The position numbers and the translations under genes are program-made. A DNA stretch of 64,000 nucleotides from a virus, in IMG/VR virus record IMGVR_UViG_3300018080_000171. One strand, written 5' to 3'. Numbering within the stretch: position 1 is the stretch's first letter; each line of letters starts with the position of its first letter. Of this stretch, positions 6,650-9,646 are shown piece after piece. Under the pieces are notes generated by a model. That model saw nothing but the letters and a program-made list of their open reading frames with translations. It did not search any database and was not told where the DNA came from.

Positions 6650-6725
6650 TAAGGGTTGCCAGATTGTTGGTTATCGCTATTCGGAAGCAGTAGTGTAGGT
6701 TCGAATCCTACTCTCTCGATTTAGT
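6650..6725 (+). ncRNA. tRNA-like 3' element (T-arm plus 3' acceptor strand TCTCTCG) with the conserved 5' motif GGGTTG..AGATTGTTGGTTATCG; paralogue A
   Basis: Perfect T-arm GTAGG-TTCGAAT-CCTAC, but no upstream partner for the acceptor strand. The 5' part is conserved with the 8136 and 9561 copies. Confidence 0.3.
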
Positions 6726-6743
6726 ATTTTTTCACCGAGAGAT

Positions 6744-6790
6744 AGTGTAATGGCAGCACGCTTAAAAACTTCAACTTTCACCTTTTCATC
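6744..6790 (+). ncRNA. tRNA 5'-half-like element (acceptor CGAGAGA, D-arm GTGT-AATGGCA-GCAC, then CTTAAAAAC...)
   Basis: CGAGAGA is the exact complement of the upstream 3' strand TCTCTCG, which gives a permuted 3'-half/5'-half order. It is followed by an intron-like core. Confidence 0.3.
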
Positions 6791-6950
6791 TTTACAAATT
6801 TTTGATTATAAATAGGGATGTTGGCTTAGAAGCAGCCATCATTTAAAGAGTAGTTTGCACTTAGCGAAGAAATGACGGACGGTAACAGTCCTATCTAAGT
6901 AGCGAGGATAAATGTGGAACTTTTGGCGTAATAGCACACCTATTATTATA
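6790..6950 (+). ncRNA. possible group I intron-like catalytic core (degenerate)
   Basis: Contains TGACGGAC-GGTAAC-AGTCCTA-T-CTAAGT. This resembles the P7/P3/P9.0 core of Tetrahymena-type group I introns (GACGGAC...GUCCUAAGUC), plus several hairpins. Confidence 0.3.
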
Positions 6951-6951
6951 A

Positions 6952-7033
6952 GGCAGTATTGAGCAGTTGGTGGCTCGGGTGGCTGTAACCCACTTTCCGT
7001 AAGGACTTATAGGTTCGAATCCTATTACTGTCA
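6952..7033 (+). tRNA. tRNA-Tyr(GTA), class II
   Basis: Acceptor GGCAGTA/TACTGTC, D-arm GAGC/GCTC, anticodon stem GGTGG/CCACT with loop CTGTAAC, variable hairpin TCC-GTAA-GGA, T-arm ATAGG-TTCGAAT-CCTAT. Confidence 0.65.
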
Positions 7034-7066
7034 TTAAAGGTTTTTTCCCGCGGATAAATAATATAT

Positions 7067-7279
7067 ATGTATAATTTATTATTTGGGAGATATATTATGA
7101 TTGAAGTTTTAAAGACATTGGCAACGAAGGTATCAGGTTCAGGTCCTATTGTGACGACAGCTATGATACTTATTTATATGTTAGCTACAGCAGCGACAGT
7201 ATCAAATTTTCTATTAAGTGTTAGTTTGATTACATTTCTTGCTGTATTTTCCATTGTTATTCAATGTTTTAAAGGGTAG
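7067..7279 (+). CDS. small hydrophobic protein (70 aa)
   Basis: ATG ORF lying between tRNAs. TM-like composition. Weak call. Confidence 0.3.
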   Translation: MYNLLFGRYIMIEVLKTLATKVSGSGPIVTTAMILIYMLATAATVSNFLLSVSLITFLAVFSIVIQCFKG

Positions 7280-7358
7280 GCAAGCCAATTGGCGATGGCA
7301 CCTCACTGCTAATGAGACGAGCGTAACTGCCTTGGAGGTTCGATTCCTCTTCTACCCG
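7274..7358 (+). tRNA. tRNA-Ser(GCT), class II
   Basis: Acceptor GGGTAGG/TCTACCC, D-stem GCC/GGC, loop CTGCTAA, long variable arm, T-arm GGAGG-TTCGATT-CCTCT. Confidence 0.55.
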
Positions 7359-7461
7359 TTTCCATATGGATTTCTAAAGCTCTTGTGAAAGCTCTTATGA
7401 GTTAGTACAAAAAATCTAACGCGGAAACGTTAGGTCCTTCTATACAGTTTGGGAAGGAAAT

Positions 7462-7541
7462 TGGATGATAGCGGGGAAGGTCCCCAATGAGCCTTGAAAG
7501 CTCTGCCAGCCGCAAGGTTGATGGTTCGATTCCTTTATCAT
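7462..7541 (+). tRNA. tRNA-Ser(TGA)-like, atypical (8-bp acceptor GGATGATA/TATCATCC, short D-loop, mismatched T-stem)
   Basis: Anticodon stem TGAGC/GCTCT with loop CTTGAAA. Acceptor strands are perfectly complementary. Confidence 0.4.
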
Positions 7542-7544
7542 CCG

Positions 7545-7591
7545 TTTTAAAAGGTGATGGAGGTTCGACTCCCTCTCCTTCCGCTTTTTAA
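7545..7591 (+). ncRNA. tRNA 3'-fragment (T-arm AGGTTCGACTCC plus TCCTTCC G), tRNA-Sec-3'-end-like
   Basis: Resembles the E. coli selC 3' end (AGGTTCGACTCC...TCTTCCG). Its complement GGAAGGA lies at 7454-7460, upstream of the tRNA-Ser-like gene. Confidence 0.3.
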
Positions 7592-7647
7592 TTTTTTGAA
7601 AATAAAGTATTGGAAAGTGAAATATAATCCGATATAATAATGATATT

Positions 7648-7724
7648 GCGGGTGAGTGGCATGGACATATAAACCACGCCAGGCTCATAACCTGGAAATA
7701 GCAGCGTTCGACTCCTGCACCCGC
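7648..7724 (+). tRNA. tRNA-Met/Ile2(CAT) with an enlarged T-loop
   Basis: Anticodon stem CCAGG/CCTGG with loop CTCATAA, acceptor GCGGGTG/CACCCGC, T-arm GCAG-CGTTCGACTC-CTGC. Confidence 0.45.
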
Positions 7725-7726
7725 TA

Positions 7727-8040
7727 TTAAGCCGTAAGGCTAACGAAGACCTGTTTGTTGTACAGGTACATATATAAGGCTTGAGCTGGACGCACCGGCA
7801 GAGAGATAATAGATATGTAAAGTCTACTGAGTGTAAGGGTAAATGCGAATAAGTCCTGGAAAGTAAGTAGATACTGGAATACCAGGTTAAATCCTTCTGG
7901 TAACTGAGTGATCATGTTGTACAACAGGTAAAACCTTTTGAGTGTAGGTATAGGCTAAACACTTATTTAAGTAATCTTGGCATGAATTAACATGTTAGTA
8001 CTGAGCAGAGATGATGAGGCACTGCGAGATTACTTTTTAT
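7727..8040 (+). ncRNA. roughly 310-nt hairpin-rich intergenic region between two CAT tRNAs (candidate structured RNA)
   Basis: Several stable hairpins (AGCC-GTAA-GGCT, CCTGT..ACAGG, CCTGG..CCAGG) and no convincing ORF. Confidence 0.25.
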
Positions 8041-8114: not shown

Positions 8115-8135
8115 TTTAATTTGTGGGTTGACAGA

Positions 8136-8198
8136 GTGTTGATTATCGTCTATTAAACGAGAGTTGCACGTTCGAATCGTGTCGTTCGCACCGTAAGG
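8136..8198 (+). ncRNA. tRNA-like 3' element, paralogue B (GTGGGTTG..AGAGTGTTGATTATCG... T-arm GCACG-TTCGAAT-CGTGT)
   Basis: Shares the 5' motif with the 6650 and 9561 elements and lacks an acceptor partner. Confidence 0.3.
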
Positions 8199-8199
8199 T

Positions 8200-8250
8200 G
8201 GAGCGTAGCTTAATTGGCAAAGCACTAAAAACTCAATGTTCAACTTTTTA
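8200..8250 (+). ncRNA. tRNA 5'-half-like element (GGAGCGTA-GCTT-AATTGGCA-AAGC-ACTAAAAACTCAA...)
   Basis: Homologous to the 6744-6790 element and has a D-arm-like fold. Confidence 0.3.
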
Positions 8251-8280
8251 TCCACAAATTATTTTATTAACTCTCATTGG

Positions 8281-8355
8281 GGAAGCCTGGTCATCCCGTC
8301 ACTTTTGGAAAGTGAAGAACTCAAGTTCGAATCTTGAATGAGAGAGTTATTTTAA
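8281..8355 (+). tRNA. tRNA-Pro(TGG), copy 2
   Basis: Acceptor CTCTCAT/ATGAGAG, D-stem GGGA/TCCC, anticodon stem TCACT/AGTGA with loop TTTGGAA, T-arm TCAAG-TTCGAAT-CTTGA. Confidence 0.65.
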
Positions 8356-8424
8356 TATTTTTTAAATCCGATTAAAGGGATTTGGACAAAAATCTCCAAT
8401 ACTATAAGTAGGACAAACTTATAT

Positions 8425-8979
8425 TTGAGGTCAGTTATGGATTTAAAGGAAATAGTACAAGAGAGTTATTCTATCGCAGAAGTAGGTAGAAAGCTAGGTT
8501 ATTCTTATTTTAATGGTAAAGTACGCAACGAAATAAAAATAAAAATTGGTGATATCGATTGTAGTCATTTTAAAAAGAATGGCGATTCACAAAAAAAATA
8601 CAAACATATAGAAAAAGATTGTCCTGTTTGTGGGGATAAGTTCACTACACAAGAGGGACATAAAAAAGAGAAGATAACTTGTTCTCATTCTTGTGCAAAT
8701 ACTTTTTTTAGAAGTGGTCCAGACCACGGGAACTGGAATGAAGACGCTTACAGAACAACTTGTTTTCACTATCATTATAAAAAATGTGTTTGTTGTAGCG
8801 AAGAAACTATAGTAGAAGTTCATCATATGGATGGAAATCATCAAAATAATGAACCTTCTAATTTAGTTCCGATGTGCCCAACACATCATCAGTATTGGCA
8901 TAGTAATTACAAATATGTAATTGAGGATTTAGTTATAGAGTACCATGTCAATTGGAAAAGAAGTAATAACGGGCTGTAG
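8425..8979 (+). CDS. HNH endonuclease (184 aa)
   Basis: C-terminal motif VHHMDGNHQNNEPSNLVPMCPTHH plus CxxC...C..C zinc-binding residues. Embedded in the tRNA array. Confidence 0.7.
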   Translation: MRSVMDLKEIVQESYSIAEVGRKLGYSYFNGKVRNEIKIKIGDIDCSHFKKNGDSQKKYKHIEKDCPVCGDKFTTQEGHKKEKITCSHSCANTFFRSGPDHGNWNEDAYRTTCFHYHYKKCVCCSEETIVEVHHMDGNHQNNEPSNLVPMCPTHHQYWHSNYKYVIEDLVIEYHVNWKRSNNGL

Positions 8980-9044
8980 CTCAGTTTGGTCAGAGCGTTC
9001 GGTTTGGGACCGAAAAGTCGGAAGTTCGAATCTTCTCAGCCCGA
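8970..9044 (+). tRNA. tRNA-Pro(TGG), copy 3
   Basis: Acceptor CGGGCTG/CAGCCCG, D-arm GCTC/GAGC, anticodon stem TTCGG/CCGAA with loop TTTGGGA, T-arm GGAAG-TTCGAAT-CTTCT. Confidence 0.65.
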
Positions 9045-9072
9045 TATAGTAGTAATTTTAGGAGATATAGAA

Positions 9073-9285
9073 ATGGCAGAAGTACAAATAGGTGGTTGTA
9101 GTTTAGGAATGGTTTTATTTATAGTCTTTTTAGTACTTAAATTGACTGGAGTTATAGCTTGGTCATGGTGGTGGGTTACTTGTCCTCTTTGGATAGGTCT
9201 TGCACTGTTCTTTGGTATTATAGCACTGGTATTATGTTTTGCTGGTGGACTTGTTGGGCTAGCTGCCTTATTCGGTAAAAAATAA
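9073..9285 (+). CDS. small membrane protein (71 aa)
   Basis: Start MAEVQ follows an AGGAGATA RBS. The longer listed ORF (from 8986) runs through the upstream tRNA. Two TM segments. Confidence 0.4.
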   Translation: MAEVQIGGCSLGMVLFIVFLVLKLTGVIAWSWWWVTCPLWIGLALFFGIIALVLCFAGGLVGLAALFGKK

Positions 9286-9291
9286 TTTACT

Positions 9292-9320
9292 TTGATAAGT
9301 GTTTTGGAAGTTGTTATACT
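9292..9320 (+). promoter_or_regulatory. sigma70 promoter TTGATA-N17-TATACT upstream of csp
   Basis: Consensus-like hexamers 34 nt upstream of the csp ATG. Confidence 0.5.
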
Positions 9321-9353
9321 AAATTTTTATAACACCGAAAAGGGAGTTTCTTT

Positions 9354-9554
9354 ATGAGTGAAGGCACTGTACGTTGGTTCAATTATCAAAAAGGTTATGG
9401 TTTTATTGAGTCAGATGAATTCGAGGGTGATGTTTTTTTACACCACTGTGCGTTCAAAGATCATGAGGACCAGATTCACGAAGGAAGCACTGTTATCTTC
9501 GATACTGAAGGTGGCGAAAAAGGATTAAAAGCAAAAAATGTAACACTGAAATAA
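9354..9554 (+). CDS. csp: cold-shock protein (CspA family)
   Basis: RNP1 KGYGFI and RNP2 VFLHH. TVRWFNYQKGYGFI matches the CSD consensus. 66 aa. Confidence 0.8.
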   Translation: MSEGTVRWFNYQKGYGFIESDEFEGDVFLHHCAFKDHEDQIHEGSTVIFDTEGGEKGLKAKNVTLK

Positions 9555-9560
9555 TATAAT

Positions 9561-9646
9561 GGGTTGTAGAATTGTTGGTTATCGGACTAAAACGATGATG
9601 GTGTAATAGCCTCATTGCCAGTGGGGTTCAAATCCTCACACCCTCG
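9561..9646 (+). ncRNA. tRNA-like element, paralogue C (GGGTTGTAGAATTGTTGGTTATCGG... T-arm TGGGG-TTCAAAT-CCTCA)
   Basis: Third copy of the GGGTTG..TTGTTGGTTATCG motif with a canonical T-arm. It does not fold as a standard tRNA. Confidence 0.3.

Follow-up and report, generated by a model that had tools for sequence, protein, structure and literature searches.

Paralogous tRNA-like elements with a conserved rod inside the tRNA array of a very-large-phage contig

Introduction

What are tRNA-like repeats doing inside a phage transfer RNA (tRNA) array if no tRNA can be called at them? This question arises at three places in the virus record IMGVR_UViG_3300018080_000171, of which we studied a stretch of 64,000 nucleotides (nt), here called the window; it belongs to a metagenomic contig of 64,138 nt (ENA ERZ27256796 k141_482434). 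Its tRNA array spans positions 5184-15804. It has 32 tRNAs according to ARAGORN, all on the plus strand. Three further elements lie on the same strand within the array: copy 1 at 6645-6799 (about 155 nt), copy 2 at 8118-8260 (about 143 nt) and copy 3 at 9556-9683 (about 128 nt). A first-pass annotation had described them as conserved, non-canonical tRNA-related elements, and had proposed a split tRNA, a tRNA-derived regulatory RNA or a decoy of tRNA processing. The description was right in the main: the elements are repeats without tRNA calls. More precisely, we read them as paralogous structured non-coding RNAs of about 130-155 nt, each consisting of a terminal stem, an interrupted rod and a tRNA-like head. 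The split tRNA does not fit them, and the regulatory or decoy role comes near to the reading that we favour below.

A repeated block and tail without a tRNA

The repeat was examined by pattern search. The core TGTTGRTTATCG has three exact matches on the plus strand, at 6665, 8137 and 9573, and a fourth match elsewhere with one mismatch. The number expected by chance is 0.53, and four matches were reached in none of 100 shuffles. The core belongs to a 24-nt block, GGGTTG-N6-TGTTGRTTATCG, which is found at 6653-6676 in copy 1 (GGGTTGCCAGATTGTTGGTTATCG), at 8125-8148 in copy 2 (GGGTTGACAGAGTGTTGATTATCG) and at 9561-9584 in copy 3 (GGGTTGTAGAATTGTTGGTTATCG). The starts given by the first-pass annotation were exact for copy 3 (9561) and close for copy 1 (6650). 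For copy 2 the start (8136) was placed 11 nt too far in the 3' direction.

A second motif, which the first-pass annotation had not reported, lies toward the 3' end of each element. On the plus strand, CTTTTYATCY occurs at 6782, 8244 and 9669 only. It is part of a conserved 3' tail that reads AACT(T)C, YCAAY, CTTTTY-ATCY and then flank. In copy 1 the tail (6760-6799) consists of AAAAACTTCAAC, then CTTTTCATCT (6782-6791) and the 3' strand of the terminal stem. Likewise, copy 2 (8224-8260) has ACTAAAAACTCAATGTTCAAC, then CTTTTTATCC (8244-8253) and the stem strand. Copy 3 (9654-9683) has AACTTCCAATATTC, again CTTTTTATCC (9669-9678) and its stem strand. The block is 83-88% identical among the three copies, and the T stems, acceptor-like stems and D-arms share no common sequence.

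None of the three elements is an ordinary tRNA. ARAGORN calls no tRNA or transfer-messenger RNA (tmRNA) at any of them. With the Rfam tRNA model they score 13-15 bits, where the threshold is 29. The GGGTTGN segment has no complementarity to the strand after the T-arm, and the canonical acceptor stem of the 5' and 3' ends is not formed. The observation is therefore real and non-random, given the counts of the core against chance, the T-arms and the lack of a tRNA call.

A promoter reading of the block was considered and dropped. Only copy 2 resembles TTGACA-N17-TATTAA, and the promoter scan reports no promoter at any of the three blocks.

The ends of each element pair into an interrupted rod

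We folded the elements with their flanks by minimum free energy and tabulated the helices. The 5' block, with a few upstream bases, pairs with the 3' tail, a pairing that was likewise not part of the first-pass annotation. The resulting rod comprises a terminal helix (P1), a segment of the AGA/UUU type and a second helix (P2).

In copy 1, P1 pairs ATTTGTAAGGGT (6645-6656) with ATCTTTACAAAT (6788-6799), 12 pairs out of 12. It is followed by AGA (6661-6663) with TTT (6776-6778) and by P2, GTTGG (6666-6670) with TCAAC (6771-6775). In copy 2, P1 pairs AATTTGTGGGT (8118-8128) with ATCCACAAATT (8250-8260), 11 of 11 within these strands, and P2 pairs GTTGA (8138-8142) with TCAAC (8240-8244). Copy 3 begins 2 nt past the stop codon of a cold-shock-domain gene. 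Its P1 joins ATAATGGGT (9556-9564) to ATCCATTAT (9675-9683). The rod continues with GAAT (9569-9572) on ATTC (9664-9667) and GTTGG (9574-9578) on CCAAT (9659-9663), and T9573 is bulged.

The terminal stems reach 12, 12 and 9 contiguous pairs in copies 1, 2 and 3. The chance of this per random position is 0.0015, 0.0015 and 0.04, respectively. The variable parts of P1 differ between the copies and yet are complementary: ATTTGTAA/TTACAAAT, AATTTGT/ACAAATT and ATAAT/ATTAT. Similarly, the fifth pair of P2 (GTTGR/YCAAY) is G-U, A-U and G-C in copies 1, 2 and 3. Compared with shuffled sequences, the fold energy with flanks has z values of -1.8 (copy 1), -3.3 (copy 2) and -2.3 (copy 3).

A head with the parts of tRNA in permuted order

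The head sits on the tip of the rod. An optional variable (V) hairpin comes first, then a T-arm and a closed acceptor-like stem. In copies 1 and 2 these are followed by U8-A9 and a canonical D-arm.

Copy 1 can form a V hairpin with a GGAA tetraloop (6676-6694). An alternative to it, read from the sequence, is a 4-base-pair (bp) helix P3, AAGC (6685-6688) with GCTT (6760-6763), which abuts the D stem. The T-arm GTAGG-TTCGAAT-CCTAC (6695-6711) is all Watson-Crick. The acceptor-like hairpin (6712-6742) has seven Watson-Crick pairs, TCTCTCG (6712-6718) with CGAGAGA (6736-6742), around a 17-nt loop. Then U8-A9 and the D-arm, TA GTGT AATGGCA GCAC, occupy 6743-6759.

The V hairpin of copy 2, TCGT-CTATTAA-ACGA (8146-8160), has a 7-nt loop and resembles an anticodon arm of 4-7-4 build. 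The tRNA-like head is closed by P3, GAGTT (8161-8165) with AACTC (8230-8234). Its T-arm is GCACG-TTCGAAT-CGTGT (8166-8182), with one G-U pair. The acceptor-like hairpin, CGTTC-G-CACC GTAA GGTG-GAGCG (8183-8205), consists of 9 bp with one bulge and a GNRA tetraloop. It is followed by U8-A9 and the D-arm, TA GCTT AATTGGCA AAGC (8206-8223).

Copy 3 has no D-arm. Its parts are the V hairpin CGATGA-T-GGT GTAATA GCC-TCATTG (9593-9617), the T-arm (G)TGGGG-TTCAAAT-CCTCA(C) with one G-U pair (9621-9639) and a short closed acceptor-like hairpin, CCTC GAAA GAGG (9642-9653).

The head of copies 1 and 2 is thus a tRNA circularly permuted through the anticodon stem, with the acceptor end sealed, because the order is T-arm, closed acceptor-like hairpin and D-arm. 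This arrangement is rare among the loci covered. A custom search for a T-arm, an acceptor-like stem and a D-arm was run over the window and all fetched loci, and 65 instances of a D-arm after a T-arm were inspected. The intervening segment is fully complementary only in copies 1 and 2 and in one tandem pair of tRNA-Met paralogs. Copies 1 and 2 also keep the core residues of tRNA, U8, A9, A14, G18-G19, A21, G53-C61, T54-T55-C56 and A58, and an A15-U48 pairing is possible in both.

These folds revise several parts of the earlier description. A T-arm of 5-7-5 build is present in every copy, as had been stated, and it is perfect in the Watson-Crick sense only in copy 1. The acceptor strands had been thought to lack a partner. 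In fact, those of copies 1 and 2 each base-pair with the first bases of the "5' half" downstream, which yields a closed hairpin. The 5'-half-like sequences after two copies do exist (CGAGAGA-TA-GTGT-AATGGCA-GCAC at 6736-6759, and GGAGCG-TA-GCTT-AATTGGCA-AAGC at 8200-8223). They are not separate elements: each is one side of the acceptor-like hairpin and then the D-arm of the permuted domain. Finally, there is no 5-7-5 anticodon arm on a tRNA frame, in agreement with the annotation, although copy 2 has the 4-7-4 hairpin described above. The elements can neither decode nor be charged, since they have no anticodon arm on a tRNA frame and no free CCA end.

An ortholog of copy 3 keeps the rod

Among the relatives of the window, only contig L035 carries an ortholog, that of copy 3 (507-645 in L035). 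Its cold-shock protein is 89% identical to that of the window. The rod strands differ by one substitution in 67 nt, compared with 90.5% identity in the adjacent cold-shock gene and 74.7% in the neighbouring tRNA-Pro. This single substitution sits on a predicted bulge and is also the only one in the block. In the V hairpin, one pair changes from A-U to U-G. At the acceptor-like site, the hairpin of copy 3 is replaced by a different one, CTCCG[14]CGGAG. Judged from this one ortholog, the differences would be the pattern expected of a selected RNA structure.

A different fold was considered for copy 3, similar to the MALAT1-associated small cytoplasmic RNA (mascRNA) or to a mini-tRNA, with GATGGTG paired to CACCCTC. 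It was rejected. In L035 this pairing is lost, and the model with two hairpins is compensated.

Resemblance to YrlA and to other known systems

The closest architecture known to us from the literature is that of the bacterial Y RNA YrlA. It has a terminal stem, an optional V stem-loop and near-invariant T and D stem-loops, with an acceptor-like stem-loop of unconserved sequence between them (PMC4201824). All three copies share with YrlA (RF02553) a long interrupted stem in which the two ends of the RNA pair. The order of V, T-arm, acceptor-like stem-loop and D-arm is also the same in copies 1 and 2. Their T and D loops have the tRNA-invariant residues, with a possible R15-Y48 pair. A UUAU resembling YUAY precedes the V region. 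The acceptor-like stem of copy 1 has 7 bp, as in the YrlA of Mycobacterium smegmatis, which is cleaved by RNase P (PMC4201824). Several paralogs occur in the genome, and copy 3, which has no full tRNA-like domain, can be compared with YrlB. Phage-encoded examples also exist. Y-like RNAs are described from mycobacteriophages, CcrColossus, phage G and the Thermus phage phiLo, each of which encodes a Ro60 homolog (PMC4201824; PMC12135203).

There are also differences. The elements lie inside a tRNA array and not beside rsr. Their stem has its own blocks, GGGUUG-N6-UGUUGRUUAUCG and CUUUUYAUCY.

Other known systems were compared as well. Permuted tRNA genes (Cyanidioschyzon merolae) and split tRNAs (Nanoarchaeum) also encode the T-arm and 3' acceptor strand first, with the 5' acceptor strand and D-arm after them. 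In our elements, however, an anticodon arm cannot be restored from the termini, a structured loop seals the acceptor end and no mature tRNA is expected. The type of organism differs too. The two-piece tmRNA likewise has its T-arm and acceptor 3' strand before the acceptor 5' strand and D-loop. It differs in that our elements have just 130-155 nt, without pseudoknots or a conserved tag reading frame; no common reading frame was seen in the sequences of the three tails. Stable RNAs other than tRNAs are also present in the tRNA cluster of phage T4, where species 1 and 2 RNAs are presumably released by tRNA-processing enzymes. The likeness consists in this cluster setting, and a permuted tRNA head is not a described feature of the T4 RNAs.

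A proposed tRNA-mimicking tether or decoy

The reading that we favour, and that we consider about evenly balanced between right and wrong, is that the elements are co-transcribed and processed non-coding RNAs. In them, a head mimicking the tRNA elbow and minihelix would sit on a protein-binding rod, and the whole would act as a tether or decoy. The elements would form part of the transcript of the phage tRNA array, from which tRNA-processing nucleases would release them. The head could present the tRNA elbow (T-loop and D-loop) and the acceptor/T minihelix to a factor that recognizes tRNA, with RNase P, a modification enzyme or a tRNA-directed host protein as candidates. The rod, conserved in sequence, may bind a second protein, as Ro60 does on Y RNAs. 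In copy 1, nicking by RNase P at the 7-bp acceptor-like stem is possible, as reported for the YrlA of M. smegmatis. The RNA would then serve as a tether or decoy during infection. The analysis establishes that the elements are paralogs, have the helices and the permuted order described above and are not tRNAs; their transcription, processing, protein partners and biological role we infer.

A more specific version is tentative and, in our estimation, rather unlikely. It sees in the elements a class of phage tRNA mimics independent of Ro60. The rod GGGUUG-N6-UGUUGRUUAUCG/CUUUUYAUCY would recruit a phage or host protein, and interchangeable permuted heads would capture or titrate a host factor that reads the tRNA elbow. 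Such a captured factor could be, for example, RNase P, a tRNA-directed defence nuclease or a stringent-response factor.

Directly after copy 1, the region 6812-6945 shows a mimic of the GTPase-associated centre of 23S ribosomal RNA (rRNA), that is, the L11/thiostrepton-binding domain (E. coli 1051-1108). At 6816-6851, a run of 34-36 nt matches the 23S rRNA of Salmonella, E. coli, Staphylococcus and others with 100% identity. Past an insertion of about 75 nt the mimic keeps GCGTAATAGC, the 1095 loop, and its closing helix is compensated (ATAGG/CCTAT). It was not found at any related locus. This L11-binding-centre mimic might be part of the same decoy strategy toward the translation apparatus.

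Points that weigh against the favoured reading

Several results count against the tether or decoy. The first group concerns the structure. The inner junction, V hairpin or P3, differs between the copies. The D-arm is missing from copy 3. The covariation support consists of three paralogs and one ortholog. A scan for promoter and terminator consensus sequences found none at the elements.

The second group concerns the relation to YrlA. The Rfam YrlA model aligns end to end with copy 2; the score is 23.2 bits, and the gathering score is 69. For copies 1 and 3 no YrlA match was obtained even at E<=10. Ordinary tRNAs adjacent in related arrays produce false YrlA matches of 26-30 bits. Since these tRNAs score equally or better, the Rfam match is no evidence on its own, and we dropped it as a sign of membership. 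The motif GNCGAA(N)G / CGAA, whose form GNCGAA(N0-1)G / CGAA near the 5' end is the proposed Ro60 contact (PMC4201824; PMC12135203), is missing from the 5' strand of the stem in all three elements. In their sequences CGAA is confined to two T-loops (copies 1 and 2) and one acceptor-like tetraloop (copy 3), of which the last is lost in L035. Among 73 open reading frames of at least 65 amino acids in the window, including all four of at least 400, none has a Pfam match to TROVE/Ro60 or RtcB. Because the score, the CGAA motif and the TROVE gene all fail, we describe the elements as working like a YrlA-type tRNA mimic and not as a member. In layout they are of the YrlA type; membership in the Y RNA family is not established.

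The third group concerns the distribution. No close relative of the window was found among GenBank phages, and a megablast of 6400-9900 against them detected no related phage; its matches were tRNA-Ser fragments and a 23S rRNA fragment only. Other contigs with the exact window proteins come from other samples; being 100% identical to the window, they offer no variation. Through a RecA-like ATPase we recovered the nearest relatives, which are contigs of 155-460 kb. With relatives of this size, the window belongs to a very-large-phage lineage, and its complete genome probably exceeds 200 kb. Related loci (L005/6, L008, L010/11, L014, L036, L115, L117 and L119) were fetched through the ATPase, the HNH endonuclease and a 60-amino-acid membrane protein. 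The block was seen in none of them, and L014 stops just short of the informative spacer. Used as anchors in IMG/VR, the sigma-like protein retrieved no relative, and the cold-shock protein retrieved only unrelated phages, at about 48% identity.

By regular expression and nhmmer, the block is absent from L005/6, L008, L010/11, L036, L115, L117 and L119, in some of them at the same syntenic spacers. The marker proteins of these seven contigs are 73-81% identical to those of the window. In some relatives the flanking tRNAs directly abut: Asp-Tyr in L119 and L036, and Met-Pro in L036. Searched by exact pattern, the IMG/VR viral contigs gave 0 matches to the block. In GTDB genomes there were 24, all of them in unrelated coding sequence with no T-arm downstream, a count that fits chance. 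The family is tiny and young. The presence of the block in one close relative (L035) and its absence from seven narrow the family and do not remove it.

The tRNA-Met/tRNA-Pro spacer, which holds copy 2 in the window, folds as an end-closed rod in three relatives (L008 15746-15870, L010 16162-16256 and L005 18200-18288). The L008 spacer has TTGA(T/A)TATCG and a closing stem in common with copy 2, and no T-arm. Since rod features occur there without a T-arm, the rod may be older than the tRNA-like head, which is only suggestive.

Alternative explanations

The alternative that survives best, although we regard it as unlikely, is inert debris of tRNA-gene rearrangement. T-loop recombination with tandem duplication and truncation would produce chimeric pseudo-tRNAs. 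In these, the 5' acceptor/D-like region would come from one tRNA, the T-arm with the 3' strand from a second and the 5' half from a tandem copy. The block does resemble a tRNA acceptor strand and D-loop (GGGTTGN NN AGAT-TGTTGGTTA-TC). Hairpins that resemble an anticodon arm, with U33 and a purine at 37, are present in copies 1 and 2, and the array contains other orphan T-arms and odd tRNA-like pieces. Moreover, the tandem tRNA-Met paralogs of L008 demonstrate that complementarity between a 3' strand and the next 5' strand can arise trivially. What debris does not predict is the distribution of conservation within the elements. The block and the 3' motif are common to the copies, while the T, acceptor-like and D parts share no sequence. 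The terminal stems are compensated between copies, far above chance. GNRA-capped acceptor-like extensions would be unexpected from two abutting tRNA genes. In L035 the rod is more conserved than the neighbouring protein gene, and the changes in the head are compensated.

A second possibility, which we judge quite unlikely, is that the elements act only in cis, as punctuation for RNA processing and stability. Heads would recruit RNase P or RNase Z, and stems RNase III, cutting the polycistronic array transcript with no role in trans. Copy 3, for instance, would define where the cold-shock-domain mRNA ends and would shield that 3' end. The place of copy 3, 2 nt after the stop codon, agrees with this, and the comparison with L008 suggests that the insertion provided the present stop codon. 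In copy 1, the 7-bp acceptor-like stem stacked on the 5-bp T stem amounts to a minimal RNase P substrate, and the YrlA of M. smegmatis is so cleaved (PMC4201824). The lack of promoter and terminator consensus at the elements fits co-transcription. However, the genuine tRNAs that flank copies 1 and 2 already supply processing sites, and the acceptor-like stems of copies 2 and 3 are not 7 bp long. Punctuation also leaves unexplained why the 24-nt block and the 10-nt 3' motif are conserved in sequence and not just in structure.

We give little credit to a small non-autonomous mobile DNA element, either similar to a miniature inverted-repeat transposable element or spread by a homing endonuclease. 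The terminal stems would then be terminal inverted repeats, and every copy has such inverted termini. There are three copies per genome, with presence and absence differing at identical tRNA spacers in close relatives. Endonuclease genes of the HNH and LAGLIDADG types are located within the array or close to it, and copy 1 is flanked by an imperfect direct repeat of 10 nt (TTTTGAATAT and TTTTGATTAT). Nevertheless, the inverted termini differ between copies and are compensated, which argues for selection on pairing rather than on a transposase-binding sequence. Copies 2 and 3 show no convincing target-site duplication. All copies follow the transcribed orientation of the array, and no copy was found outside the array, in IMG/VR or in GTDB genomes. 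The debris and mobile-element explanations fit the patchy distribution, in which close relatives lack the elements at the same spacers. Neither agrees with the compensated stems, the GNRA caps or the differential conservation.

Finally, we find it scarcely credible that the elements are tRNA genes, split or circularly permuted, whose products mature into functional tRNAs that can be charged. The order of T-arm, 3' acceptor strand, spacer, 5' acceptor strand and D-arm formally resembles permuted genes, but the termini form an interrupted rod of about 25 bp instead of a 5-bp anticodon stem with a 7-nt loop, so that no decodable tRNA can assemble. The acceptor-like stem has 9 bp with a bulge and tetraloop in copy 2 and 4 bp with no D-arm after it in copy 3, and ARAGORN and the Rfam tRNA model reject all three. 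Bacteria and their phages are not known to possess the required splicing-endonuclease and circularisation pathway.

Other features of the array and its surroundings

Further tRNA-like pieces without an ARAGORN call, among them orphan T-arms, were observed at 4436-4452, 4715-4731, 6238-6293, 7545-7583, 7650-7730 and 12340-12356. The piece at 6238-6293 is an armless mini-tRNA-like element with the acceptor GGGATAG/CTATTCC. That at about 7650-7730 is tRNA-like, with a CAT anticodon and an oversized D region. Two tRNA calls are unusually long, tRNA-Val at 5789-5878 (90 nt) and tRNA-Asn at 6056-6148 (93 nt). They have long counterparts in L008 (13836-13924) and L010 (14030-14121), and could harbour introns or insertions.

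Between tRNAs, a non-coding region of about 300 nt (about 7730-8030) is conserved with L115 (5214-5476). No Rfam match was obtained for it at E<=1, and it may be a further structured RNA. Just upstream of tRNA-Ala, a hairpin-like element of about 55 nt, GCACCGAGGYGGG...AGCTAACT...GGTAGGTGC, is conserved across relatives (window 9694-9750, L008 16468-16515, L035 657-710 and L039 915-965), also with no Rfam match.

Protein genes are present as well. The HNH endonuclease gene (8437-8979) lies between two tRNA-Pro(TGG) genes, at 8271-8345 and 8970-9044, and its 3' end overlaps the second. L115 shows the same arrangement, and its HNH protein is about 73% identical to that of the window. A protein with sigma-70 region 4 is encoded within the array at 13955-14566, and is kept in the identical contigs only. 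Outside the array, a LAGLIDADG gene is found at 24202-25017. A PARP-like protein of eukaryotic type (22829-24136) combines WGR, regulatory and catalytic domains; jumbo phages of Xanthomonas, Stenotrophomonas and Klebsiella encode proteins that share 31-35% identity with it.

Implications

The tRNA arrays of large phages are usually read only as sets of tRNAs for codon supply or against host defence. The same arrays can hold tRNA mimics with the build of bacterial Y RNAs and without the Ro60 signature. This would explain a class of calls of an "orphan T-arm" or a "tRNA half" that annotation pipelines miss or report as pseudo-tRNAs. If the elements are expressed, the conserved rod would be a handle for pulling down the partner protein. 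Likewise, Y-RNA-like tethers and decoys would extend past the genomes that encode Ro60.

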